Shown: positions 3,573-25,675, numbered from the stretch's first letter. The stretch is 64,000 bases of DNA from Spirochaetia bacterium (GCA_045606105.1 JAZURI010000002.1:64001-128000), one strand, 5' to 3'. Notes: generated by a model from the sequence alone, not told the origin. Numbers and translations: made by a program.

Positions 3573-4201
3573 CAGACATCAATGCATTGGAATACATGAG
3601 AAGCTTTATCGAATTTACAAATCCTGTATGCAGGGAGCTGGAATCCACAAATGCGGGAAGGGATGATCTTCAGCCCTCCATCGAGCCTGAAAGCGGCCGT
3701 TTTCTTTCATTCCTTGTCAGGATGACAGGAGCCAGGAAGGTCCTTGAAATGGGATGCGGTGTGGCAAACTCCACAATATGGCTGGCAGAGGCGGTAAAGG
3801 CCAACGGAGGAATACTCTATACAGTGGACAATCATCCGAGGACCTGGGCAGAGGCCTGCAGGAATATCGAGAATTCAGGCCTGAAGGATTATGTCCGGAT
3901 GTTTCATTCCGATGCAGAGGCCGCAGTTGAGAAATTCATGGCAGATGGCGAGGAATTCGACCTTATTTTCCAGGACTGCGGAAAATATGTATATACATTG
4001 ATCTATGACCAGGTGGCATCCCTGTGCCGGAAAGGGGGAATAATAGTTGCAGACGATACCATGTTCTCAGTCTGTGACGGTGTAAGGAAAAACCTGGGAC
4101 TCCATATGGACCGTTACAATAAGCAGATGTTTGCAGACAAGGCCTTTTTCTCAACCATGATACCCATCGGTCACGGAATCACCCTGAGCCTGAAGTTCTG
4201 A
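3569..4201 (+). CDS. Class I SAM-dependent O-methyltransferase (TrmR/caffeoyl-CoA OMT-like)
   Basis: VLEMGCGVANS, FDLIFQD and GGIIVADD. The GTG start overlaps the upstream stop (GTGA). Confidence 0.8.
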   Translation: MTDINALEYMRSFIEFTNPVCRELESTNAGRDDLQPSIEPESGRFLSFLVRMTGARKVLEMGCGVANSTIWLAEAVKANGGILYTVDNHPRTWAEACRNIENSGLKDYVRMFHSDAEAAVEKFMADGEEFDLIFQDCGKYVYTLIYDQVASLCRKGGIIVADDTMFSVCDGVRKNLGLHMDRYNKQMFADKAFFSTMIPIGHGITLSLKF

Positions 4202-4208
4202 ATCAGGT
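4193..4208 (+). repeat. Left direct repeat of the glycan island
   Basis: AAGTTCTGAATCAGGT; TCTGAATCAGGT (4197-4208) is identical to 12537-12548. Confidence 0.85.
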
Positions 4209-4225
4209 TTAACTTCAATTATGAG

Positions 4226-4254
4226 TTGTTTTTTATAAATTTTATTATTATAAT
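4226..4254 (+). promoter_or_regulatory. Putative sigma70 promoter of the island operon
   Basis: TTGTTT-17 nt-TATAAT; SD-like GAGGG before the TTG start at 4287. Confidence 0.5.
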
Positions 4255-4286
4255 GATATTCATAAGCTTGACTGAGGGTAAGTACT

Positions 4287-5411
4287 TTGGATAAAGGACA
4301 TCAGAAAAAATTATTTGTTTCCCAGCCTCTTCTGCCGTCACTGTCAGATGTAAACAGGCATCTTGAGGATATATGGAATTCCAGATGGCTTACCAATATG
4401 GGAATAAAACACAACGAATTAGAAAACAGGATAAAGGAAGTCCTTAAGGTACCTTGTGCATCACTTTTCAATAACGGAACAATTGCATTGCTGACAGCAA
4501 TCAAAGCACTTGATTTACCTTACGGAAGCGAAATTATAACTACTCCGTTTACATTTGCCGCGACTCCACATTGTATTACATGGAACGGTATGACACCCAT
4601 ATTCTGTGACATAGAAAAAGATACTTGTACCATTGATGCAGATAAGATAGAAAGACTTATCAATTCTAAAACTTCAGCTATTCTTGGAGTACATGTTTAC
4701 GGTTTTCCTTGTAATATTGAAAAAATAGGGAAAATTGCCGAAAAATATAATCTAAAAGTCATATATGATGCTGCACATGCTTTTTCTACAGAGATAGACG
4801 GCCGCGGTATCGGTACATTCGGTGATATAACTATGTTCTCTTTTCATGCGACCAAGCTTTTTAATTCAATAGAGGGAGGATGTCTTACCTACAATAATTC
4901 TGATCTGATCAAGAAAATCTATAATCTCAGAAATTTTGGTATACAGTCGGAAGAAATGGTTGAAGAGGTTGGAATCAACGGAAAACTAAATGAAGTCCAG
5001 GCATCTATAGGACTGGAAAACCTGAAACTTTTCCGGGATGAACAGTCAAAAAGGGCTGAAATAAAAAAATTTTACGACAGCAATCTTGGAAAAATCAAAG
5101 GAATATGGATTCCTGAACTTCCTGCCGGTGTTACAAATTCATATCAGTATTATCCAATTATCATTGAAGATGATTTTCCTGTTTCCAGAAACGAGCTTTA
5201 TGAAAGATTCAAAACACAAAACATCTTTACCAGAAAATATTTCTATCCGGCATGTTCAGATTATGCTTGCTATAGAAACAGTCCATCGGTAATGAATTCA
5301 GATCTTTCCACAGTCAACGATATCAAGTACAGGGTTCTTTGTCTCCCTTACTACGGTTCACTTACAGAAGAAGATCTGGAAAAAATCTGCAGAGGTTTCA
5401 GATGTCTTTAA
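4287..5411 (+). CDS. DegT/DnrJ/EryC1/StrS PLP sugar aminotransferase (VioA-like)
   Basis: NNGTIAL, TTPFTFAAT, IYDAAHAF, SFHATK (PLP Lys) and RKYFYP motifs. Confidence 0.88.
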   Translation: MDKGHQKKLFVSQPLLPSLSDVNRHLEDIWNSRWLTNMGIKHNELENRIKEVLKVPCASLFNNGTIALLTAIKALDLPYGSEIITTPFTFAATPHCITWNGMTPIFCDIEKDTCTIDADKIERLINSKTSAILGVHVYGFPCNIEKIGKIAEKYNLKVIYDAAHAFSTEIDGRGIGTFGDITMFSFHATKLFNSIEGGCLTYNNSDLIKKIYNLRNFGIQSEEMVEEVGINGKLNEVQASIGLENLKLFRDEQSKRAEIKKFYDSNLGKIKGIWIPELPAGVTNSYQYYPIIIEDDFPVSRNELYERFKTQNIFTRKYFYPACSDYACYRNSPSVMNSDLSTVNDIKYRVLCLPYYGSLTEEDLEKICRGFRCL

Positions 5412-6127
5412 GAATTCTGAAGAATATAGTCTGGTTATTGTTCGGAAAAAAACGCCTCAGCAGAAAAATCAGGAAATGCAATGAAATTCAGATAAATAAA
5501 TCTGCATTGAAAAACATAAGTTTCAACATCAGGGGATGTAACAACACTGTTGTCATAAAGAACAATACCATCAACGGAAAAATTTTTCTTAATATTTTCG
5601 GAGATAACAACAGGATATTTATAGATGAAAATGTCAGTATTTCAGATTCTTTAAGAATATATATCGGACAGGATCATCCGTATTTCGGAAAAGTGACAGA
5701 TTCAGTCTTTTCAATAGGTAAGAATACATCGGTAGAATCCTTGAAATACATAACCTACAATTCCGGTACTTTCTGTGAAATAGGAGATGATTGTATGATC
5801 TCCTTTGGTATCACAATATATAATACAGACGGACACCCTATCCTTGATAAGGAAACCGGTAAAATTGTCAATCATGTTTCAGGTATAAGAATCGGAAGAC
5901 ACTCCTGGCTTGGAATGAATACTGTCATATTGAAAAATTCCGTAATTCCGGATAATTCAATCATAGGCTGCAGCTCGGTATTTTCAGGTAAAAAATTTAC
6001 CCGAACTTACTGTGCTTATGCTGGTAATCCGGCTGTACAGGTCAGGACAGATGTGGACTGGAATGTTGACGGCAAACGATACGGTTACATAACAAACAAC
6101 AGACAGTCGGAGAACAGCAATCAATGA
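5402..6127 (+). CDS. Left-handed beta-helix (hexapeptide repeat) acyltransferase
   Basis: IGDDCMIS, NTDGHPI, IGRHSWLG, IPDNSIIG and AGNPA. The ATG at 5402 overlaps the upstream gene end. Confidence 0.8.
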   Translation: MSLRILKNIVWLLFGKKRLSRKIRKCNEIQINKSALKNISFNIRGCNNTVVIKNNTINGKIFLNIFGDNNRIFIDENVSISDSLRIYIGQDHPYFGKVTDSVFSIGKNTSVESLKYITYNSGTFCEIGDDCMISFGITIYNTDGHPILDKETGKIVNHVSGIRIGRHSWLGMNTVILKNSVIPDNSIIGCSSVFSGKKFTRTYCAYAGNPAVQVRTDVDWNVDGKRYGYITNNRQSENSNQ

Positions 6128-7287
6128 AGCACGAAATTAAGGGAAACAGGATTGCATATACAGTTTTCGGGAAACAGATTCTTTTTATTAATTTTGCCTA
6201 TTACAAAAACATATTTGCAGAAACTGTCAAGGCAAAAAAAATACAGGATAACTATGATCTGAAAACACTCCGTGAAGCAAAGAAGCTTATTCTGTTCGTT
6301 GTTCCGGCATCTACCAAAATCAACGGAGGAATAATGTCCATATATTCTCTCTGCGAAACATCAAGAATGCTGAATCCCGATTCACTCTGTATAATTTCCA
6401 CATATCCCAATTCAAGGTTTACATATTCATCCAACGATAAATTCCTTAATTATGAACAGATCTACAGGTTTGACCAGATAACAGAACATTGCCGCAACCT
6501 TGAAAGTCTTATTCTCCATATACCCGAATACTACTCAAAGGAATTCTATGGTTCTCTGAAACAGAAAGATAAGGATTTTTTCAGAAATTCAGGCAAGGTT
6601 CACATCAATATACTGAATCAGAACATCGAACTTATGCCGGATCCTATGAATATCAGCAGTCTGTATGAAATAACCCATAATATAACCCAGACACTTGCCC
6701 ATAACAGATATGCGACACAGGAAGTATGTGACAAATGGCAGATACCAACACATCTTTTCTCTGTCAGTATTGATTTATCAAGATATAAGATATATAATTT
6801 TGAAAATAAAGAAAAAATAATTGTATTGTCACCAGATACAAATAAATACAGGGATAGGGTAATTGCTGTCCTTAAAGAAGGGCTGCCGGAGTGGAAAATT
6901 ATTACTGTAAATAACCTTACATTTGCAGAATATATGGATCTTATTTCAAGGGCATTCTTTACAGTTACGTTCGGTGAGGGAATGGACGGGTACCTTAACC
7001 AGCCGATATATAAGAACAGTTTAGGGCTGGCTGTATATAACGAGGATTTTTTTCCGGGTAAAAGCTGGATGAATCTGAGAAACATATATCCGGACTATGA
7101 AACCATGATCAGGAATATCTGCAGCGATCTGCAAGAACTATATTCAGACAGTGATTTGTATTATAAAGTCATCGAAGAACATAGACAGATGCTTGGTTCC
7201 ATTTATGTAACGAACAATTATGTTGACAATTTAAGGCGGTTTTATCTGGGAGAATACGATTTTTTTCCAGCTATCAAAGGAGATTAA
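6124..7287 (+). CDS. Hypothetical protein, possibly a GT-B glycosyltransferase
   Basis: 387 aa, coupled by an ATGA overlap. N-terminal GG motif (INGGIMSIY) and late FGEGMDGY resemble GT-B donor-binding motifs. Confidence 0.45.
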   Translation: MKHEIKGNRIAYTVFGKQILFINFAYYKNIFAETVKAKKIQDNYDLKTLREAKKLILFVVPASTKINGGIMSIYSLCETSRMLNPDSLCIISTYPNSRFTYSSNDKFLNYEQIYRFDQITEHCRNLESLILHIPEYYSKEFYGSLKQKDKDFFRNSGKVHINILNQNIELMPDPMNISSLYEITHNITQTLAHNRYATQEVCDKWQIPTHLFSVSIDLSRYKIYNFENKEKIIVLSPDTNKYRDRVIAVLKEGLPEWKIITVNNLTFAEYMDLISRAFFTVTFGEGMDGYLNQPIYKNSLGLAVYNEDFFPGKSWMNLRNIYPDYETMIRNICSDLQELYSDSDLYYKVIEEHRQMLGSIYVTNNYVDNLRRFYLGEYDFFPAIKGD

Positions 7288-7289
7288 GT

Positions 7290-8462
7290 ATGAGTCTGGC
7301 AACTTTTAAACATGTTAAAATTTCAGGAATAAGTGTTGTCGTTCCAGAAAAAGAAATCAATATTTATGATGAAGCACAGTATTATGGCGGAAGTGTTAAG
7401 AAAATAGACAGAATGAGAAAAATGGTAGGCTTCTGGAAAAGAAGGGTTGCCGATCTTGAAACGACCCCTGCTGATTTAGCATATGATGCCGCAATCAATC
7501 TCATTGATGACTTAAAAATAGATAAAAATACAATAGATGCTTTGGTATTTATTGTTCAACAACCGGATGTTTTAAATCCATCTACTGCATACTTTCTTCA
7601 CGATAAATTAGGACTTTCTCAGTCTTGTTTGGCAACTGATATCAATCAAGGCTGCGTAGGATGGGTCTTCGGTCTTTATATGGCAAGCCAGATGATTGAG
7701 TCCGGAGCTCATAAAAAAATCCTTTTATTGAATGGAGATACTCCTTCTGTGGGAATTGATCCTTCTAATAGGAATTCAGCACCTATTTTCGGTGATGGGG
7801 GATGTGCAACACTGCTTGAATATAGCGATAATGAAATAAAATCATATTATAATCTTGATGTTGTTTCATCAGGTTTTGAAGCTATTGTCGCACCTTTCAG
7901 TGGTACAAGATTTAGGATGGAATGGCAGAAGGAAGGGGAATTGGAATTATACCATAAATTATTTTTGGAAAAACTTACTATGCCTACAGGAGCAACTGTT
8001 CCATTAATGGGTGGATATATGGATGGAATATCTGTTTTTGATTTTACTATCAAATATGTACCCGATAATATTAAAAAATTATTAGCTTACGCAAATCTCA
8101 CCCCGGAAGATTCAGGTGCGCTTTGTCTTCATCAAGCAAACAAACAAATTATTCAGGCTGTAGGTACAGAAGCTGGATTTGAGCTTGAAAAAGTTCCTTA
8201 TACCGCATTTGAAATTTACGGTAACAGTACAATGTGTTCTATACCAACAACAATAGCCTGTCTTGATAAATCAATAAAAAAGGATAAACTCTGCTGTTGT
8301 GGTTATGGAAACGGTCTTATAGCCCTTGGTTCGATACTGAATCTTGAAAATACTTATATATCAGAAGTCAGGACATTCAAGAGACCTGATTATGTTATGA
8401 CCAGAGAAGAATATATTAATTACTGGAGAAATAAAATTACCGGTAATATAGAAAATAATTAA
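7290..8462 (+). CDS. 3-oxoacyl-ACP synthase III (FabH-like)
   Basis: Cys-His-Asn triad (DINQGCVG, LHQAN, YGNST) and IFGDGG. Confidence 0.88.
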   Translation: MSLATFKHVKISGISVVVPEKEINIYDEAQYYGGSVKKIDRMRKMVGFWKRRVADLETTPADLAYDAAINLIDDLKIDKNTIDALVFIVQQPDVLNPSTAYFLHDKLGLSQSCLATDINQGCVGWVFGLYMASQMIESGAHKKILLLNGDTPSVGIDPSNRNSAPIFGDGGCATLLEYSDNEIKSYYNLDVVSSGFEAIVAPFSGTRFRMEWQKEGELELYHKLFLEKLTMPTGATVPLMGGYMDGISVFDFTIKYVPDNIKKLLAYANLTPEDSGALCLHQANKQIIQAVGTEAGFELEKVPYTAFEIYGNSTMCSIPTTIACLDKSIKKDKLCCCGYGNGLIALGSILNLENTYISEVRTFKRPDYVMTREEYINYWRNKITGNIENN

Positions 8463-8475
8463 AAGGGAGATAATT

Positions 8476-8706
8476 ATGACAAAAGAAGATTTTTTACTTG
8501 CATTGGAGGATATCCTTCAGACCGACGATCCTATTGAAATCGATCTTCAGCTTAAAGAACTCGAAGAATGGGATTCATTAGCCATGATGGCTGTTATAGC
8601 ATATTACAAGAAGACTTTTGGAATCAATATTGTACTTAAAGAGCTTAAGGAAATTAAAACACCGGCTGATCTCATTGCTTTGGCTGGAGATAAAATAAAT
8701 GATTAA
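8476..8706 (+). CDS. Acyl carrier protein
   Basis: Small acidic 76-aa protein with WDSL phosphopantetheine motif; SD GGGAG. Confidence 0.85.
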   Translation: MTKEDFLLALEDILQTDDPIEIDLQLKELEEWDSLAMMAVIAYYKKTFGINIVLKELKEIKTPADLIALAGDKIND

Positions 8707-9445
8707 GTTTAATAAGGAACAGATTTATATTGTTACAGGTGCCTCTTCCGGATTAGGAGAAGGCACTGCTTTGCTTCTTAACGAGCTTGGAGCAACAGTA
8801 GTTGCAATAGCAAGAAATTCAGACCGGCTTGAGGCAATGAGGTCAAAATGTAAATATCCTGAAAACATGCATATTGAAATCAAAGATCTGGCAGATAATA
8901 TCGATGGATTACCAGCATATATCAAAGAATTAAAAAACAAATATGGTAAGTTTTCCGGTATGGCATATTGTGCCGGAATAACAAATATTCAACCTCTGAA
9001 AATTCTTGATATTAACGAAATGAAAAAACTATTTGATATTGATTATTTTGCACCGATTGCACTTGCAAAAGGTTTTGCAGACAAAAGAAATAATATTGGA
9101 CCAGGGGCCAGTGCTGTTTTTATTTCATCATTGGCTGCTACTGCTTGTAACAGAGCTATGACAGGTTATTCAGGTGCAAAATCTGCATTAATTGCATCTG
9201 TAAGATGTATAGCTAAAGAATATGCTTCACAAAAAATCAGATTTAATTGTGTTTCACCGTCAGATATTCAGACACCGATGCAGAATTGGTTAAAAGAAAT
9301 AAAAGGTGATGAACAAACATCATGTGTCTATCCTATGGGCATAGGGGAAGTATCAGATGTGGCCAATATGATTATTTATCTTCTTTCTGATAAATCAAAA
9401 TGGATCACAGCCCAAAATTATACAATAGACTGTGGAGTAATGTAA
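8699..9445 (+). CDS. SDR oxidoreductase (FabG-like ketoreductase)
   Basis: TGASSGLG, YSGAK (YxxxK) and IRFNCVSP. Confidence 0.88.
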   Translation: MIKFNKEQIYIVTGASSGLGEGTALLLNELGATVVAIARNSDRLEAMRSKCKYPENMHIEIKDLADNIDGLPAYIKELKNKYGKFSGMAYCAGITNIQPLKILDINEMKKLFDIDYFAPIALAKGFADKRNNIGPGASAVFISSLAATACNRAMTGYSGAKSALIASVRCIAKEYASQKIRFNCVSPSDIQTPMQNWLKEIKGDEQTSCVYPMGIGEVSDVANMIIYLLSDKSKWITAQNYTIDCGVM

Positions 9446-9446
9446 T

Positions 9447-10082
9447 ATGAAGAAAATATACATAGTAGGTGGAAATGGTTTCGCAAGAGAATGTTATCTT
9501 TATCTTCTCTGGACCTGCCAGGCTAACCCGGAAATTCAGTTTGCAGGATTTCTTGGGCATGGCGGTTACGGACATACTGTGGATTACAAGAATCTTCAGG
9601 AGTTTTATAAAGGTGAAGTTGCAGACCATATTTTTAACATTGATGAATATGTTGTAATAGGAGCTGGTTATCCTGAATTAAGACAAAAGATTTATAATGA
9701 ACTTAAAGCACGTAATGTCCAGTTCTTTAATTTAATTCCACCATATGTATATATTAATTCTACCATTAATCTTGGAGAAGGAAATGTTTTTGTAGCTCCT
9801 TTCACAGCTACTGTTAATATTAAAATAGGGAATGGCAATGTTTTCAATGGTGGTGTTGTAGTTGGACATGATGCTGTAATAGGAGACTGTAATTTCTTCG
9901 GCCCGAGAAGCCAAATTCTCGGAGGTGTTAAAATAGGTAACAATAACCAAGTCGGGGCAGGTAGTATTCTTCTTCCTAAAGCAAAAATAGGCAACAATAA
10001 TATAATTGCACCTTTGAGTGCAGTATATAAAGGTTGTAAAGACAACTGCCACATGTTGGGAAATCCGGCATTAAAAGTATAA
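9447..10082 (+). CDS. NeuD/PglD/VioB-family sugar acyltransferase
   Basis: N-terminal IVGGNGFARE, hexapeptide repeats, VGHD catalytic His and GNPA. Confidence 0.85.
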   Translation: MKKIYIVGGNGFARECYLYLLWTCQANPEIQFAGFLGHGGYGHTVDYKNLQEFYKGEVADHIFNIDEYVVIGAGYPELRQKIYNELKARNVQFFNLIPPYVYINSTINLGEGNVFVAPFTATVNIKIGNGNVFNGGVVVGHDAVIGDCNFFGPRSQILGGVKIGNNNQVGAGSILLPKAKIGNNNIIAPLSAVYKGCKDNCHMLGNPALKV

Positions 10083-10092
10083 TATATTAATT

Positions 10093-12534
10093 ATGAATAA
10101 TATTAATCTAGTTACAATAAATAAAAGCAATTGCGTAGGATGTAATGCATGTTTTAACATATGCCCGCAGAATTCCATAAAAATGCTGGAAGATGAAGAG
10201 GGTTTCTTTTATCCGGTTATAAATAAACAATCGTGTATAGATTGTGGACTCTGCTTAAAAGTATGTCCATCTTTACACAAATCTCAGGTTTATGTAGATA
10301 ATTCAGAAAATCCGGATTGTTATGCTGCTATGGGAAACAATGAATTAAGAGCAATAAGTTCATCCGGCGGTGCTTTCTCTGTTATTGCGGACAGAATTTT
10401 TAATATGGGTGGTGTTGTTTGCGGAGCAGCTTTTGTCGGACAGGATGTCAGACACATAATTATTGATAATCCTTCAGAACTTCACCGACTGCGAGGGTCA
10501 AAATATCTTCAGTCTGACACAAATATAATTTTCAGCCAGATTAAGAATATTTTAGATAAAGGAAGAATATTGTTATTTACCGGTACTCCATGTCAGGTTG
10601 CCGGACTTAATCTTTTTTTGGGAAAAAAATACGATAACTTGTTTACTGTTGACCTTCTCTGTCATGGGGTACCTTCACAGAAGGTCTTTGATAAATATCT
10701 GGAAGAGACCATTAAAGAGGGAGAGTTTGTTCATACTTCATTTCGTGATAAAATAGCTGGTTGGAATGTTTATGCTACTACTACTACTACTACTACCCAA
10801 TATCATGAAACTTCATCTGTATCGACCTACCTGCAGGCTTTTTTAAAAAATATGTGTCTAAGACCTAGTTGCGGTACTTGTAAATTCACTTCAACAAAGA
10901 GGGAAGCTGATATAACTATCGGAGATTTCTGGGCAATCGAGCGTTATAAGCCAAGTCTAAATGACAAGAAAGGGACTTCTGTCATTTTATTGAACAGCGA
11001 AAAAGGAAAAGCTCTGTATAACGAAATAAAGTCTGAATTTAAGATACAGGAAAAAGTTCCTATTGAATATGCCAAATGGTTTAACATTTCTTTATACACA
11101 ACACTTAGACAACATCCCAAAAGGCATGTTTTTTTTAAAATGCTGAATGAGGGAAAAACCCTTAAGGAAATCACTGATTATTTCAACAGCAAAAGTTTTG
11201 ATGTCGGAATTATCAATTTCTGGACCTTCAAGAATATGGGAGGAGTTATTCAGACATATGCATTGCAGACAGTTATCAATCAACTTGGATATACCACCTG
11301 CAATATTAATACATTATTCTCTATTGATATTAGAAATAAATATACGGGATCATTTGTTGACAAATTTGCAAGAAAGCATCTGTCCTACACTGAACCATAT
11401 TATTCTTTGCCAGCTTTAAATAAAATTAATGAATATTTTGATACATTTGTATTTGGTTCCGACTGTATTTGGGGAAATTGGTGGACTAAACAAGAAAACT
11501 GTTTAAGATTTTTTGGAAATTTTATAGATTCAAATAAAAAAATCATTTCATATGCTCCGTCGTTTGGTAGCAGTACCTTTAACAGGGCAAATAATATTAC
11601 AAACATTATAAGATATTATCTTAAAAAGTTTGATGCTGTCTCTGTAAGAGAAAAAAGCGGAGTAGACATATTAAAAAATACTTTCGGAATTGACGGTACT
11701 CTTGTTCTTGATCCGACATTGCTTCTTAATGCAGACAAATATGATGAATTGATCAGATTTTCCAAAATGAGTAACAAAAACTATATATTCAATTATTCAA
11801 TAGGCATTAAACAAGATGATATCGCTTATCAAGAAATGATTAAAAAAATTGAAAAAGAGGATATTTTTGCACTGACACAAGATAAACTCGATAATATAAA
11901 TGTTGAAGATTGGCTTTACCTGATAAAAAATGCAAAACTTCTTATTACCAATTCATATCATGCCTGCTGCTTTGCAATAAAATTCAATGTACCATTTTAT
12001 ATTTTTTCCCCTTACGAACTTGATACCACAAGATTTGATTCCTTGCTCAGAATCCTGAATCTGGAGGATAGGATTCTTCGTTCCAAGGAAATTGTGTATA
12101 ACATAAAGGATGTTTATGTTCCTATTGATTGGAATAATGTAAATTCAATTATTAAAAAAGAAGCTGAGCGTTCGATTTCATGGCTGAAAGAAGCTTTGGA
12201 AACACCTAAGGATGTTTCAAAAATCAATCCGGCAGATGATGTGATAAATTTTCTTAACAGCAGGATTTCAATTCTGGAAGAAGAAATAAATAGAAATAAT
12301 AATATTTTAAATGTAATTGATTACAAGAAAAATTATAATCGTTATATGTTATTTCGAATTCTGAAAAAACTTTCCCGTTCTCACGAGAAGAAGCAAAAGT
12401 ATAAAACAAAACAGCAATTTTATTATGCAAAATTAAAAATTACAAAGGAAATAAGAAAAAAAAACAAGCAGAAAAGTACTATCTTTATTGAGGATGTTAT
12501 TGCAATCTTAAAAAAAATATTAAAGAGAAAATAA
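10093..12534 (+). CDS. Fusion of 4Fe-4S dicluster, FrhB/FdhB-like and polysaccharide pyruvyltransferase domains
   Basis: CVGCNACFNICP and CIDCGLCLKVCP; SSSGG, RGSKYLQS, GTPCQ, CHGVPS and ADITIGDFW; then NMGGVIQ, FGSDCIW, SVRE, DPTLLL and TNSYHA. Confidence 0.85.
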   Translation: MNNINLVTINKSNCVGCNACFNICPQNSIKMLEDEEGFFYPVINKQSCIDCGLCLKVCPSLHKSQVYVDNSENPDCYAAMGNNELRAISSSGGAFSVIADRIFNMGGVVCGAAFVGQDVRHIIIDNPSELHRLRGSKYLQSDTNIIFSQIKNILDKGRILLFTGTPCQVAGLNLFLGKKYDNLFTVDLLCHGVPSQKVFDKYLEETIKEGEFVHTSFRDKIAGWNVYATTTTTTTQYHETSSVSTYLQAFLKNMCLRPSCGTCKFTSTKREADITIGDFWAIERYKPSLNDKKGTSVILLNSEKGKALYNEIKSEFKIQEKVPIEYAKWFNISLYTTLRQHPKRHVFFKMLNEGKTLKEITDYFNSKSFDVGIINFWTFKNMGGVIQTYALQTVINQLGYTTCNINTLFSIDIRNKYTGSFVDKFARKHLSYTEPYYSLPALNKINEYFDTFVFGSDCIWGNWWTKQENCLRFFGNFIDSNKKIISYAPSFGSSTFNRANNITNIIRYYLKKFDAVSVREKSGVDILKNTFGIDGTLVLDPTLLLNADKYDELIRFSKMSNKNYIFNYSIGIKQDDIAYQEMIKKIEKEDIFALTQDKLDNINVEDWLYLIKNAKLLITNSYHACCFAIKFNVPFYIFSPYELDTTRFDSLLRILNLEDRILRSKEIVYNIKDVYVPIDWNNVNSIIKKEAERSISWLKEALETPKDVSKINPADDVINFLNSRISILEEEINRNNNILNVIDYKKNYNRYMLFRILKKLSRSHEKKQKYKTKQQFYYAKLKITKEIRKKNKQKSTIFIEDVIAILKKILKRK
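10775..10796 (+). repeat. (CTA)7 in-frame microsatellite encoding poly-Thr
   Basis: ctactactactactactactac, translated as ATTTTTTT. Confidence 0.9.
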
Positions 12535-21310: not shown

Positions 21311-21770
21311 AAAGGGAGACCCCCCCTTACAACCCACAGTAGATGGGACGAAAATCAGGAAAACGGTAATAAAGGACTTTATTCTCAAGGTTCTTGATTA
21401 TCTCGGAAAAGACAAATGGGAATTATCCGTTCTTTTCTGCAACGACAGCTTTATACAGGAGCTGAACAGTGCCTACAGAGGCAAGGACGAACCTACAGAT
21501 GTCCTTACATTTGCCCAGGTAGACAGCGATATCCCTTTCCCGGCAAAGAATAACCGGTATTACGCAGGTGATATTGCAATTTCACTTGAAACACTTTCTA
21601 AGAATTCCAAGGCATTCGATGTATCTCCGGACGAAGAGCTTAAAAGGCTTCTTATCCACGGTATCCTCCATCTTGACGGCATGGACCATGAGGATAACGA
21701 ACCGGAAAGAGAAATGCTTGTTCTACAGGAAAAAATACTTCAGGACTTCAAAGGAGTGCAGCTGCTGTGA
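21285..21770 (+). CDS. ybeY: rRNA maturation endoribonuclease YbeY
   Basis: LNSAYRGKDEPTDVLTF and HGILHLDGMDH. Confidence 0.93.
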   Translation: MNYLQIQIEKGDPPLQPTVDGTKIRKTVIKDFILKVLDYLGKDKWELSVLFCNDSFIQELNSAYRGKDEPTDVLTFAQVDSDIPFPAKNNRYYAGDIAISLETLSKNSKAFDVSPDEELKRLLIHGILHLDGMDHEDNEPEREMLVLQEKILQDFKGVQLL

Positions 21771-22555
21771 AAATCTCAGATTTTTTGAATAAAATGTTTC
21801 ACAAATCCGAATTCGACGAGGAAAGCTTCGGCAACCGTGACCTTAACCTCGAAGAAAAGGATATGATAAAAGGAATTGTGGATCTGGCCGAAAAGACAGC
21901 CAAGGATATCATGATTCCCCGCACCGATGTGGTTTTCATCCCTTCAGATGTTTCCAAGGATGAGATTCTCAAGATAATCGTGGAAAGCGGTTTCTCCAGG
22001 TTCCCTGTTTACGAGGAAACCATTGATAATGTAATCGGAATCCTTCACGTGAAGGATGTTCTCATGATGCTTGTAACAGGGCAGGATTTCTCCGTCAAGG
22101 ATCTTCTCAGAAAGCCTTATTTCATTCCGGATACAAAGAAAGTCAATTCACTTTTCCACGAAATCAGAAGAAAGAAATGTCATATTGCCATTATCGTTGA
22201 TGAATACGGCGGAGTGGCAGGAATCATCTGTCTCGAGGATATTCTTGAGGAGATAGTAGGTGAGATCCAGGATGAATTCGATGATGACGAGGAGGATATC
22301 CTTAAGGTAAGTCCTTCCGCTTATATCTGTGACACCAGGGTTTCCATTGATGACCTGAATGAAGAGCTTCATATAAATCTTCCGAATGAGGATTATGATA
22401 CTCTCGGAGGCTTTGTTTTTGAGCTTTTCGGAAAGATTCCGGTAAAATATGAGAAGAAATCCCATGACAATATGAATTTCATCATACAGGATGTGGACGG
22501 AAACAAGATCAAATCGGTCAAGATTGAATTGAACGTAAACAACAAACAAGGTTGA
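21767..22555 (+). CDS. CBS-pair + CorC/HlyC domain protein
   Basis: IMIPRTD, FSRFPVY, VDEYGG, LEDILEEIVGEIQDEFD and DTLGG. Confidence 0.9.
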   Translation: MKISDFLNKMFHKSEFDEESFGNRDLNLEEKDMIKGIVDLAEKTAKDIMIPRTDVVFIPSDVSKDEILKIIVESGFSRFPVYEETIDNVIGILHVKDVLMMLVTGQDFSVKDLLRKPYFIPDTKKVNSLFHEIRRKKCHIAIIVDEYGGVAGIICLEDILEEIVGEIQDEFDDDEEDILKVSPSAYICDTRVSIDDLNEELHINLPNEDYDTLGGFVFELFGKIPVKYEKKSHDNMNFIIQDVDGNKIKSVKIELNVNNKQG

Positions 22556-22580
22556 AATAAATTATTTTTAGGTTCATACT
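22552..22580 (+). promoter_or_regulatory. Leaderless promoter of the pantoate kinase-coaBC operon
   Basis: TTGAAA-17-CATACT-6-ATG (22587); no SD. Confidence 0.6.
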
Positions 22581-22586
22581 GATATT

Positions 22587-23516
22587 ATGTTAAGAAAAGT
22601 CGGCGCATTTGCTCCCGGACATGTTTCGGGACTGTTCTACATGCAGGATAAAAGCAGCAACCCGCTTTACGCAGGCTCCCTGGGAGCCGGTTATTCGCTG
22701 CTTAAGGGTATTACAACAAACATTGAGGTAAAGAAGAGTCAGGATGAATGCGGAATCACCATCAACGGTGTCCACAGCGATGCTCCCGTAAGCCGGAAGG
22801 TCCTGGAACTTTTCTTCAATGAAATCAACGAAAAACCAATTCCTATTGACATAAAACATGTTATAGAAACACCGCAGGGTTCAGGTTTCGGTACCAGCGC
22901 AGGAGGTGCCCTGAGCCTTTCCATGGCACTGAATCATCTTTACGGTGAACCGCTGAACATGATCAATGCCTCCAAGCTGGCCCATGTGGCAGAGGTATGC
23001 TGCAAAACCGGTCTGGGAACCGTAATGGGTGAGTTCTACGGCGGATTCAGAATTCTTACCAAGGTCGGAGCTCCCGGAATAGGAGCCTCCCTTTCCATCC
23101 CTTATCCTGCCGATCTCTATTCCATGTGCGTGGTATTCGGGCCTATTTCCACAAAGGACTCCCTTTCAGACCCTGCAATCAGGGAACGGGTAATGGAGGC
23201 CGGAAAAAAATATCACAACCTTCTGAGTGAAAATCTGGATATAGATCATTTCCTTGAATATTCCAGGGCTTTTACCGAAGATACCATGCTCTATACTCCG
23301 GGAGTGCGTGCAGCTCTCGATTTCTTTACCGAAAGAAAGATAAATGCCAGCATGCTCATGTTCGGAGACGGTATATTTTCCATAATCCCAAAATCCATGC
23401 TGAAGGAAGCGATAAAGACAGCCGAGGATTTCAGCAGCCTCTGCAGCGGCATCAAGCCGGAAATATCCATATCTCGCATCGCAAAGCGCGGTGCCGGAAT
23501 AGTAAGCGAAGACTAA
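22587..23516 (+). CDS. Archaeal-type pantoate kinase-like GHMP kinase (COG1829)
   Basis: AFAPGHVSGLF, GSLGAG, PQGSGFGTS (GHMP loop), AHVAEV...TGLG, GAPG, ISTK and ASMLMFG. Adjacent to coaBC. Confidence 0.85.
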   Translation: MLRKVGAFAPGHVSGLFYMQDKSSNPLYAGSLGAGYSLLKGITTNIEVKKSQDECGITINGVHSDAPVSRKVLELFFNEINEKPIPIDIKHVIETPQGSGFGTSAGGALSLSMALNHLYGEPLNMINASKLAHVAEVCCKTGLGTVMGEFYGGFRILTKVGAPGIGASLSIPYPADLYSMCVVFGPISTKDSLSDPAIRERVMEAGKKYHNLLSENLDIDHFLEYSRAFTEDTMLYTPGVRAALDFFTERKINASMLMFGDGIFSIIPKSMLKEAIKTAEDFSSLCSGIKPEISISRIAKRGAGIVSED

Positions 23517-23526
23517 GGAGAAGCCC

Positions 23527-24795
23527 ATGGCATACGGAATCCATCCTTCATTCGACATAACCGAATCCAGGGATACCACCCTCAGGGGAAAATCCATCAT
23601 TCTCTGTATAACAGGCAGTGTTGCTGCCGTACGGGCATCGGAACTGGCAAGACTTCTCATGAGAAAAGGGGCAAAGGTCTATCCTGTAATGTCTGCCGCC
23701 GCATGTTCCCTTATCGGACCCGACCTTATGGAATGGGCCTGCGGCTTCAAGCCTGTAACCACCCTTACCGGAGCTGTTGAACATGTGGCACTGGCCGGAA
23801 ACGTGGAGGGAAAAGCAGATCTGATTCTTGTGGCTCCATGTACCGCAAATACCATCGGTAAGATTGCAGGTGGAATAGACGACACTCCTGTAACCACAAT
23901 GGTTACCACAGCCCTTGGCGAAAAAATACCTCTTATAGTTGTTCCGGCAATGCACGAGCCGATGTACCGTCATCCATTCGTGATGGAAAACATAGAAAAG
24001 CTCAGAAATGCGGGTATTACCGTAATGCTTCCGAGAGTGGAAGAGGGAAAGGCAAAAATTCCCGACAACGAGCTTATTGCAGATACCGTAGTATCAGTTC
24101 TGTCAAAGGATAAGCCGCTCAAGGGTAAAAAAATACTGATAACAGCAGGAAGGACAGTGGAATATATTGATCCTGTCCGTGTAATAACAAACAACAGCAC
24201 CGGAAAAATGGGTTTTGCCATTGCCGAAGCGGCCCGTGACATGGGAGCCGAGGTTACAGTTGTTTACGGAAAGGGCTCCGTGGATTCGGTTCCTGGTGTA
24301 AAAATCATAAATGTTTCCACAGCTGAGGAAATGAAAAAGGGTGTGGAGCAGGAGCTCAGCTCTTCAGATTATGATATCATGATGGCGGCAGCGGCCGTGG
24401 GAGACTGGCAGCCGGTGGAATCATCAGAAACAAAGCTCTCAACCAGGGAGCATAAAAAACTGATTATGGAGCTTGTTCCCACACCTAAGATCATAGATGG
24501 CATAAAAAGCCGCTATCCTGAGGTATTCCTTGTTGCTTTCAGGGCTCTTCACGACCTTTCAGAGGATGAGCTGCTGGATGACGGCAGAAGAAGAATGGCG
24601 ATAGCTGATGCCGACATGATTGCCATCAATGATGTGTCAAAGGCAGGCCGGGGCTTCGGAACCGACACCAATGAAATGCTGGCAGTAAGCAAGGACGGCG
24701 AAATAAGAAAGCTGGAACTTGCATCAAAATATGAAATCGGAAAAAAACTTCTTAATATAGCTTTGGAGAAAATCAATGCAGGCAAAAATAATTAA
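23527..24795 (+). CDS. coaBC: Phosphopantothenoylcysteine decarboxylase/synthetase CoaBC
   Basis: CITGSVAA, EHV, APCTANTIGKIA, PAMH, TAGRT.EYIDPVRVITN.STGKMG, AAAVGD and GFG.D.NE. Confidence 0.93.
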   Translation: MAYGIHPSFDITESRDTTLRGKSIILCITGSVAAVRASELARLLMRKGAKVYPVMSAAACSLIGPDLMEWACGFKPVTTLTGAVEHVALAGNVEGKADLILVAPCTANTIGKIAGGIDDTPVTTMVTTALGEKIPLIVVPAMHEPMYRHPFVMENIEKLRNAGITVMLPRVEEGKAKIPDNELIADTVVSVLSKDKPLKGKKILITAGRTVEYIDPVRVITNNSTGKMGFAIAEAARDMGAEVTVVYGKGSVDSVPGVKIINVSTAEEMKKGVEQELSSSDYDIMMAAAAVGDWQPVESSETKLSTREHKKLIMELVPTPKIIDGIKSRYPEVFLVAFRALHDLSEDELLDDGRRRMAIADADMIAINDVSKAGRGFGTDTNEMLAVSKDGEIRKLELASKYEIGKKLLNIALEKINAGKNN

Positions 24796-25675
24796 CGGAC
24801 TTGAAATAAGAAAGGCAATCCTTGAGGAAATCAAGGCAGAAACACAGAAAATCAAGGAAGAAAAGGGAGTGGTTCCCGGACTGGTTACAATTCTCGTAGG
24901 TGAAAATCCCGCTTCTGTTTCATATGTCACCCTCAAGGTAAAGACAGCCATAGAAATGGGCTTCAACGAGATTCAGGTAAATCTCCCTGCAGATATTTCC
25001 GAAGAGGCACTTCTGGCAGAGGTTGAAAAATACAATAAGGATGATTCCGTACACGGAATCCTGGTACAGCTTCCTCTTCCCAAGCACATTGATGAAAACA
25101 AGATCATTTATGCGATAGACCCTGACAAGGATGTGGATGGCTTCCATCCCGTAAACATCGGCCGTCTTGTACTGGGAGGAGAACATGTGAAATTCCCTCC
25201 ATGTACCCCTGCCGGAATCGTTGAGCTTCTGGAACGTTCAGGAGTGGAGACCAGCGGTGCGGAGGTGGTTATCGTAGGAAGATCAAACCTTGTGGGCAAG
25301 CCTCTTGCAAACATGCTCTGCAGAAAGGGCAGAAATGCAAATGCAACCGTAACATTGGTACATACCGGAACAAAGGATCTGGCATCCCATTGCCGGAGAG
25401 CCGATATCCTGGTTGCGGCAGCCGGTTGTCCGGACCTTATCAAGCCTGAATGGGTAAAGCCGGGAGCCTGTGTCATCGATGTTGGTGTAAACCGTGTAGG
25501 TGAAAAAATCAGCGAAAAGACAGGAAAGAAGGTGGCAATCCTGAAGGGAGATACCGATTTCGAGGCTATTTCCAAAATTGCAGGCAGTATTACCCCGGTA
25601 CCGGGAGGAGTAGGCCCGATGACTATTGCCATGCTTATGCAGAATACACTCAATTCCCTGAAATTCAGGATCTGA
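24776..25675 (+). CDS. folD: Methylenetetrahydrofolate dehydrogenase/cyclohydrolase
   Basis: YVTLK, GILVQLPLP, KDVDGFH, PCTP, GRSNLVGKP and TPVPGGVGPMT. Confidence 0.96.
   Translation: MQAKIINGLEIRKAILEEIKAETQKIKEEKGVVPGLVTILVGENPASVSYVTLKVKTAIEMGFNEIQVNLPADISEEALLAEVEKYNKDDSVHGILVQLPLPKHIDENKIIYAIDPDKDVDGFHPVNIGRLVLGGEHVKFPPCTPAGIVELLERSGVETSGAEVVIVGRSNLVGKPLANMLCRKGRNANATVTLVHTGTKDLASHCRRADILVAAAGCPDLIKPEWVKPGACVIDVGVNRVGEKISEKTGKKVAILKGDTDFEAISKIAGSITPVPGGVGPMTIAMLMQNTLNSLKFRI

Follow-up and report, generated by a model that had tools for sequence, protein, structure and literature searches.

The window analysed here is a stretch of 64,000 nucleotides from an uncultured Spirochaetia bacterium (GCA_045606105.1 JAZURI010000002.1:64001-128000). 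Its plus strand carries a gene for a GHMP kinase homologous to archaeal pantoate kinase (PoK), immediately upstream of coaBC, a gene of coenzyme A (CoA) synthesis. The kinase lacks the phosphopantothenate synthetase (PPS) gene that adjoins it in related genomes, and comparative genomics suggests that it probably serves as a pantothenate kinase (PanK). The locus comprises the following features:

21767 to 22555, plus strand: corC-like CBS/transporter-associated gene, an open reading frame (ORF); upstream neighbour of the kinase in the kept string PhoH-HD membrane protein-YbeY-CorC-kinase.
22587 to 23516, plus strand: PoK-like GHMP kinase of 309 aa, without PPS, the proposed pantothenate kinase (ORF; family and structure matches).
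23517 to 23526, plus strand: 10-nt spacer with the Shine-Dalgarno-like sequence GGAGAAGCCC, read from the comparison with genome G201 as the junction left by PPS excision.
23527 to 24795, plus strand: coaBC, bifunctional phosphopantothenoylcysteine synthetase/decarboxylase of archaeal-like type, 422 aa (TIGR00521, tree, motifs).
24776 to 24795, plus strand: overlap of coaBC and folD, read as the junction left by panB excision (G201 has PanB between CoaBC and FolD).
24776 to 25675, plus strand: folD, next gene downstream in this string (ORF).

The plus-strand string in the window runs ybeY, corC-like, kinase, coaBC, folD and trpS, with gaps of 31, 10 and 12 nt and two overlapping gene pairs. 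As a sequence-only reading of this DNA had stated, the kinase lies 10 nt upstream of coaBC, and all the motifs named there occur in the translations: FAPGH, GSLGAG, PQGSGFGTS and AHVAEV...TGLG in the kinase, and HPSFDI, ELARLLMRKGA and EHV in CoaBC. Contigs from public runs span the kinase/coaBC junction without an insert (X1 record 1, 3019 nt, covering 22300-24868; X2 record 21; X10 record 8). X1 is the best DNA run for the window and may be its own source sample, hence not independent; X10 is an RNA library whose contigs cover both genes as well as the junction. No contig spans the junction in run X11, which is a gap in cover and not evidence. An assembly chimera is rejected because the junction is spanned in other runs, and a recent island is rejected because the GC content of the kinase/coaBC region (0.46) matches its flanks and the synteny is kept across the genus. 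The window's stretch is found again in 20 runs (animal gut, faeces or sheep) from 9 studies.

The kinase matches the Pfam family GHMP_kinases_N (PF00288, E 1.4e-8), and among NCBIfam models it scores highest on the two for pantoate kinase, NF040725 and NF041122 (131.7 and 122 bits), followed by mevalonate kinase at 26.7 bits. It falls below both curated equivalog cut-offs (131.7 vs 380 bits, 122 vs 500 bits), which belong to models built for methanogen and Thermoplasmata sequences. The nearest solved structure by phmmer is the PoK of Thermococcus kodakarensis (6jbc/6jbd, E 3e-31). An AlphaFold2 model of the kinase (pLDDT 92.9, pTM 0.91) also has 6jbc as its first Foldseek match (E 2.3e-29, TM 0.83), the runners-up being other GHMP enzymes, mevalonate diphosphate decarboxylases, at E ~1e-19. 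The three kinds of match agree, and the earlier recognition of a COG1829-type PoK homologue holds. The kinase shows no match to the CoaA (TIGR00554), Fumble (PF03630) or CoaX (PF03309) families. Some of these spirochaete proteins are already labelled 'pantoate kinase' in databases.

The distribution of the kinase was followed in 201 genomes of the phylum, 61 closer relatives and 80 named loci. At E <= 1e-10 it is found in 4 of the 201 phylum genomes; among the closer relatives it is present in 25, including 18 of the 19 other members of family f1. PPS occurs in 17 of the 61, each of them kinase-bearing and with PPS directly adjoining the kinase, and in 73 of the 80 named loci the two genes are no more than 4 kb apart. 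The exceptions are six loci of genus g1 from ruminant metagenome-assembled genomes (MAGs) and one archaeal contig of 2.7 kb. Eight genomes have the kinase without PPS, namely that of the window (G000) and G202-G208; all belong to genus g1, whose ninth member, G201, has PPS. The g1 genomes are uncultured Spirochaetia MAGs, with the G202-G208 subgroup coming from ruminant fore-stomachs (goat, sheep, buffalo, yak) and G201 from horse faeces. PanB is encoded in 34/61 relatives and, within g1, in G201 only. CoaX was found in 28/61 relatives and PanC in 6/61 (0/19 in family f1), neither of them in any of the eight PPS-less genomes, and CoaA exceeded its cut-off in 0/61.

Gene order places the losses precisely. 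G201 has CorC-PoK-PPS-CoaBC-PanB-FolD and other f1 genera have PoK-PPS-CoaBC-PanB, and the order in G000, G202, G203 and G206 is CorC-PoK-CoaBC-FolD. Orthologues of corC (58-70% identity) adjoin the kinase upstream in G201, G202, G203 and G206, and those of folD (83-89% identity) hold the equivalent position within the genus. A 10-nt spacer of GGAGRA type separates the kinase stop from the coaBC ATG in G000 and in 6/6 ruminant MAG loci, the site that PPS occupies in G201; the same loci share a direct coaBC/folD junction of one type at the site that PanB occupies in G201. PoK-PPS-CoaBC-PanB is thus the ancestral operon of family f1, and one PPS excision and one PanB excision in the common ancestor of the PPS-less genomes make the simplest history. 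The kinase tree unites the seven PPS-less kinases with support of 99/97 and makes G201 their sister. A five-gene tree of 1890 columns joins G000 to the G202 group with support of 65/51, and the grouping of G000 with G201 is not rejected (approximately unbiased test, p-AU 0.415). Since that tree leaves the branching order of G000 and G201 undecided, a single loss rests on the shared junctions and the kinase tree, and two parallel losses may be an alternative.

Other genes of the pathway were sought in the G000 assembly (1,464,972 bp, 11 contigs, 99.03% complete). CoaBC, CoaD and CoaE are present. The absence of PPS, noted earlier for the operon, extends to the genome: PF02006 has 0 matches in the whole assembly, and the control search matched in four archaeal genomes. 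The sequence-only reading had proposed a genome search for panC, coaA and coaX, and none was found in G000, with no match to PanC (PF02569), to the type I PanK CoaA (TIGR00554) or to the type III PanK CoaX (PF03309). PanB was not found in G000 either. Because PPS, PanC, CoaX, CoaA and PanB are all missing from these searches (that for type II PanK being uncontrolled, see below), the CoaBC of G000 has no recognised supplier of 4'-phosphopantothenate.

PanF, a dedicated pantothenate symporter, offers a clue to the source of the vitamin. PanF (TIGR02119) exceeds its cut-off in 8 of the 61 relatives: six genomes of the G202-G208 subgroup, G226 and G124. Within this PPS-less subgroup it is found in 6/6 genomes, at 418-453 bits against a cut-off of 328, and among the PPS-bearing or other family f1 genomes in 0/12. 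PanF directly adjoins CoaBC in G124 (C1:868872-871688) and PanB in G226 (C154:230-2890), which supports its use as a CoA-pathway marker in this class. Since PanF and CoaBC are found in the six ruminant species and known PanKs are not, these species appear to import pantothenate yet lack a known PanK, and the PoK homologue is the natural candidate to fill this gap.

It is also conceivable, if unlikely, that the kinase is still a pantoate kinase, with pantoate taken up or synthesised in some unrecognised way and a ligase unrelated to PPS or PanC linking 4-phosphopantoate to beta-alanine. PanF in 6/6 sister-subgroup genomes argues against this, since it points to salvage of the finished vitamin, as do the additional loss of PanB and the lack of any PF02006 or PF02569 match in G000. 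Such a route would require two unknown components, and a pantothenate kinase only one. It does agree with active-site residues that are essentially those of PPS-linked PoKs and with an ApbA-family gene left in G000, G202 and G203.

The orphan kinase is kept under strong purifying selection after the loss of PPS and PanB. Its dN/dS is 0.028-0.061 in 15 pairs within the G202-G208 group, measured with synonymous sites near saturation, and it is as tight as or tighter than that of CoaBC (0.056-0.076, 6 pairs). An intact full-length ORF is present in 7/8 PPS-less species-level genomes, the G205 copy being cut at a contig end. In 76 PPS-linked PoKs, 72 sites reach a conservation of 85% or more; all seven PPS-less kinases keep 67 of them, and S104, H133, E136, T145 and T189 are invariant.

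These values bear on two further explanations. The kinase may have an unrelated or moonlighting role, or be a relic before decay, with 4'-phosphopantothenate or later intermediates supplied by the gut community. A reduced genome of 1.46 Mb, probably dependent on other organisms, would suit such a cell; a dN/dS of 0.03-0.06 despite near-saturated synonymous sites, full-length ORFs in 7/8 PPS-less genomes and the conserved 10-nt coupling to coaBC do not, and we regard this as the least probable of the explanations weighed here. Alternatively, the kinase may mainly salvage pantetheine, or accept both pantothenate and pantetheine, and feed CoaD directly; a pantetheine kinase had already been considered in the sequence-only reading. 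Pantetheine is commonly accepted by known PanKs, which lends the proposal some plausibility. It would make CoaBC dispensable, yet CoaBC is kept beside the kinase at a dN/dS of 0.056-0.076, and PanF is present in 6/6 sister genomes; this explanation, too, seems improbable.

The residues of the active site were compared with those of the T. kodakarensis enzyme, in which we take R155 and T186 to bind pantoate and S104, E134 and D143 to be catalytic. The residue identities at these five positions fit the alignment of the kinase to 6jbc. The counterparts of S104, E134 and T186 are conserved as S104, E136 and T189. The position of D143 is T145 in the kinase, and T in all 83 aligned sequences, including 40 archaeal PPS-linked ones; that of R155 is L157, and L in family f1. 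Against 18 PPS-linked spirochaete kinases, only two columns set the seven PPS-less kinases apart, K/E155 to R and F181 to C. C181 is common in the wider PoK set, and the sole change unique to the PPS-less clade is that at position 155, which lies on a predicted strand (154-159, AlphaFold2) two residues from L157. Positions 155/157 are E/R in 62/76 PPS-linked PoKs, K/L in family f1 and R/L in the PPS-less clade. If the f1 PoKs, with K155/L157 for the usual E/R, were already bifunctional, the switch to pantothenate would have needed gene loss only.

CoaBC passes TIGR00521 (370.3 bits, cut-off 219.7) and combines in one chain a Flavoprotein/CoaC domain (PF02441, E 4e-29) and a DFP/CoaB domain (PF04127, E 1.4e-54). 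Over its full length it is 50-54% identical to four CoaBC proteins of Bathyarchaeia and Nitrososphaeria, and its best identity to other Spirochaetota CoaBC is 35% (121 sampled Spirochaetota genomes). In a tree of 47 rows (the short row L186 having been left out), a branch with an SH-aLRT support of 100 separates two groups. One holds 11 PoK-linked spirochaete CoaBC, four from TACK archaea and the proteins of G248, G250 and G226; the other consists of 29 other Spirochaetota CoaBC. The motifs HPSxDI, ARLLMRxGA and G.[VI]EHV occur in 14/14 spirochaete CoaBC of the G000 type and in 0/29 of the other Spirochaetota CoaBC; the four archaeal proteins carry them too, save one without HPS. Tree position and motif distribution agree, and support the earlier view of an archaeal-like CoaBC. 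Since the N-terminal extension is also found in the PPS-bearing G201, it is no remnant of the deletion.

Two variants of this enzyme were seen elsewhere. A metagenomic protein of 724 aa (P0187) is a CoaBC-PPS fusion (PF04127, PF02441, PF02006) with 59% identity to the window's CoaBC. Family f3 (G030:C1:269405-277213, and G094) has PoK and PPS, yet a split CoaC and CoaB, with a CoaC of ~190 aa adjoining PanB, in place of the fused archaeal-type CoaBC.

Outside the spirochaetes, the nearest kinases belong to Bathyarchaeia, Nitrososphaeria, Thermoproteota and Asgard archaea (36-43% identity), and the archaeal loci carry the same gene set in the order PoK-PPS-x-PanB-x-CoaBC. In an unrooted kinase tree of 84 rows, a branch with support of 68 can set 43 spirochaete rows apart from the rest, and the archaeal rows fall in a clan (95*) that also contains the spirochaete row L102. 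L102 (a Spirochaetales MAG, PoK at 4001-4798) has a long branch, but its position may point to repeated transfer. Almost all archaea have PoK and PPS, whereas few bacteria do (PMC6650551, PMC7883664), which makes archaea to spirochaete the parsimonious direction. The source was most likely a TACK-type archaeon, to judge from these unrooted trees. The archaeal origin proposed in the sequence-only reading is thus the parsimonious one, and what does not fit is a recent arrival of the kinase and CoaBC alone: the history found is an old transfer that brought the complete PoK-PPS-PanB-CoaBC cluster, which several Spirochaetia families have today, with the loss of PPS and PanB coming later within one genus.

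Taken as a mechanism, an ancestor of several Spirochaetia families would have acquired an archaeal-type operon for 4'-phosphopantothenate (PoK, PPS, CoaBC and PanB). PPS and PanB would then have been precisely deleted in one gut-associated, small-genome subclade of g1, with loss of the de novo route, and the PoK homologue retained in translational coupling to coaBC. The kinase would phosphorylate pantothenate taken up from outside and so supply CoaBC with its substrate, 4'-phosphopantothenate; the cell would then have a pantothenate kinase whose GHMP fold is unrelated to types I-III. Comparative genomics makes it rather likely that the orphan kinase acts in this way on salvaged pantothenate; the step that we infer is a substrate switch, or substrate promiscuity, of the kinase. 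The broader proposal stands at about even chances: a fourth structural type of PanK, with a GHMP fold, would have arisen from an archaeal PoK after the whole operon moved to the Spirochaetia and a gut clade switched to import of vitamin B5. Gene content, PanF and selection add weight, short of proof, to the earlier proposal of a non-canonical pantothenate kinase.

Several observations weigh against a pantothenate kinase. The pocket is barely distinct from that of PPS-linked relatives, with two clade-specific substitutions only, one of them conservative, and the kinase branch shows no acceleration of rate, its lengths scaling with those of CoaBC and FolD alike in PPS-bearing and PPS-less lineages. 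The T. kodakarensis PoK is reportedly specific for pantoate over pantothenate. One ApbA-family gene is kept in each of G000, G202 and G203, so that a ketopantoate-reductase-like activity may remain. A type II PanK (PF03630) was not found in G000, in a search without a positive control, no control genome matching. PanF is not over its cut-off in G000 or in its nearest relative, G205. G000 has two S-components of energy-coupling factor (ECF) transporters over the PF12822 cut-off (G201 has one), which are not assignable to pantothenate. Finally, the RNA-library contigs of X10 are no proof of transcription.

PanK, a drug target, catalyses the committed step of CoA synthesis, which is usually also the regulated one, and genomes seemingly without a PanK are a long-standing gap in pathway reconstructions. 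To our knowledge, only three structural types of PanK are recognised. The genus g1 amounts to a natural experiment, and because the operon occurs in this one genus both in full and in a form that lacks PPS and PanB, a specific gene can be nominated for the missing PanK. The archaeal route, accompanied by an archaeal-type CoaBC, is widespread in the Spirochaetia, and so becomes weaker as a marker separating the two domains. The automatic annotation 'pantoate kinase' would introduce errors into metabolic models of rumen and gut spirochaetes.

Some further observations concern vitamin supply and genome composition. G000 carries an ECF operon (EcfA, EcfT and the S-component C9:37984-38382; locus L197 1393-3304) ~3.2 kb from coaD (C9:34305-34763), a candidate importer of a vitamin; a further S-component lies at C11:77080-77523. 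PanB is present in eleven Spirochaetia genomes in which these queries found no PanC, PPS or PoK (G220, G222, G226, G231, G233, G238, G239, G245, G246, G253 and G255). The GC content of window positions 4001-12000 is 0.33-0.36, vs ~0.45 elsewhere in the window, and this may be a foreign or surface-polysaccharide region.

A literature search, in which works on 'pantoate kinase' were judged by title and the start of the abstract, gave no report of a PoK/PPS operon in spirochaetes or of a PPS-less derivative. The text of Thomes & Lescure 2020 (PMC7883664) makes no mention of spirochaetes, and according to it the coexistence of both routes has not been described. CoaX does occur together with PoK and PPS in G211, G214 and G217 (genus g107) and in G247, for example in G211 with CoaX at C1:533431-534039 and PoK and PPS at C1:1029209-1030862; none of the four has PanC, and CoaX may therefore serve salvage only. 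The new element is an orphan PoK homologue, a candidate GHMP-fold PanK, that has stayed strongly constrained since PPS and PanB were lost; the sister subgroup has PanF.

Among the closest known systems is that of the sponge-associated Candidatus Poribacteria, which have a PoK and PPS pair together with a bacterial-type CoaE (Thomes & Lescure 2020, PMC7883664). The likeness lies in an archaeal-type phosphopantothenate route inside a bacterium with a bacterial-type CoaE. Poribacteria keep both PoK and PPS, whereas the window's clade lacks the PPS ligase; and unlike in the account of Poribacteria, CoaBC is archaeal-like here too and the complete cluster shows synteny with the one in Bathyarchaeia. 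The Picrophilus enzyme, which the sequence-only reading had cited as a homologue acting on pantothenate, fails as a precedent for a COG1829 PanK, because it is much closer to bacterial PanK than to PoK (PMC7883664).

The intact operon of G201 and of genera g105-g107 consists of orthologues in the same chromosomal context (51-62% identity for the kinase, 60-75% for CoaBC), and differs in retaining the PPS and PanB that the window's clade lacks; the G202-G208 branch of that clade has PanF. The archaeal PoK (T. kodakarensis TK2141, 6jbc/6jbd) shares with the window's kinase the GHMP fold, the top sequence and fold match and the conserved counterparts of S104, E134 and T186. The window's kinase differs in having no PPS partner or PanB in its genome, in its NCBIfam scores below cut-off, and in T145/L157 for Tk D143/R155, with R at 155 in the PPS-less clade only. 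The kinase resembles PanK types I (CoaA), II and III (CoaX) in its proposed reaction and its place in the pathway, immediately upstream of CoaBC. Types I-III have P-loop or ASKHA folds, whereas the window's kinase has a GHMP fold and no homology to them.

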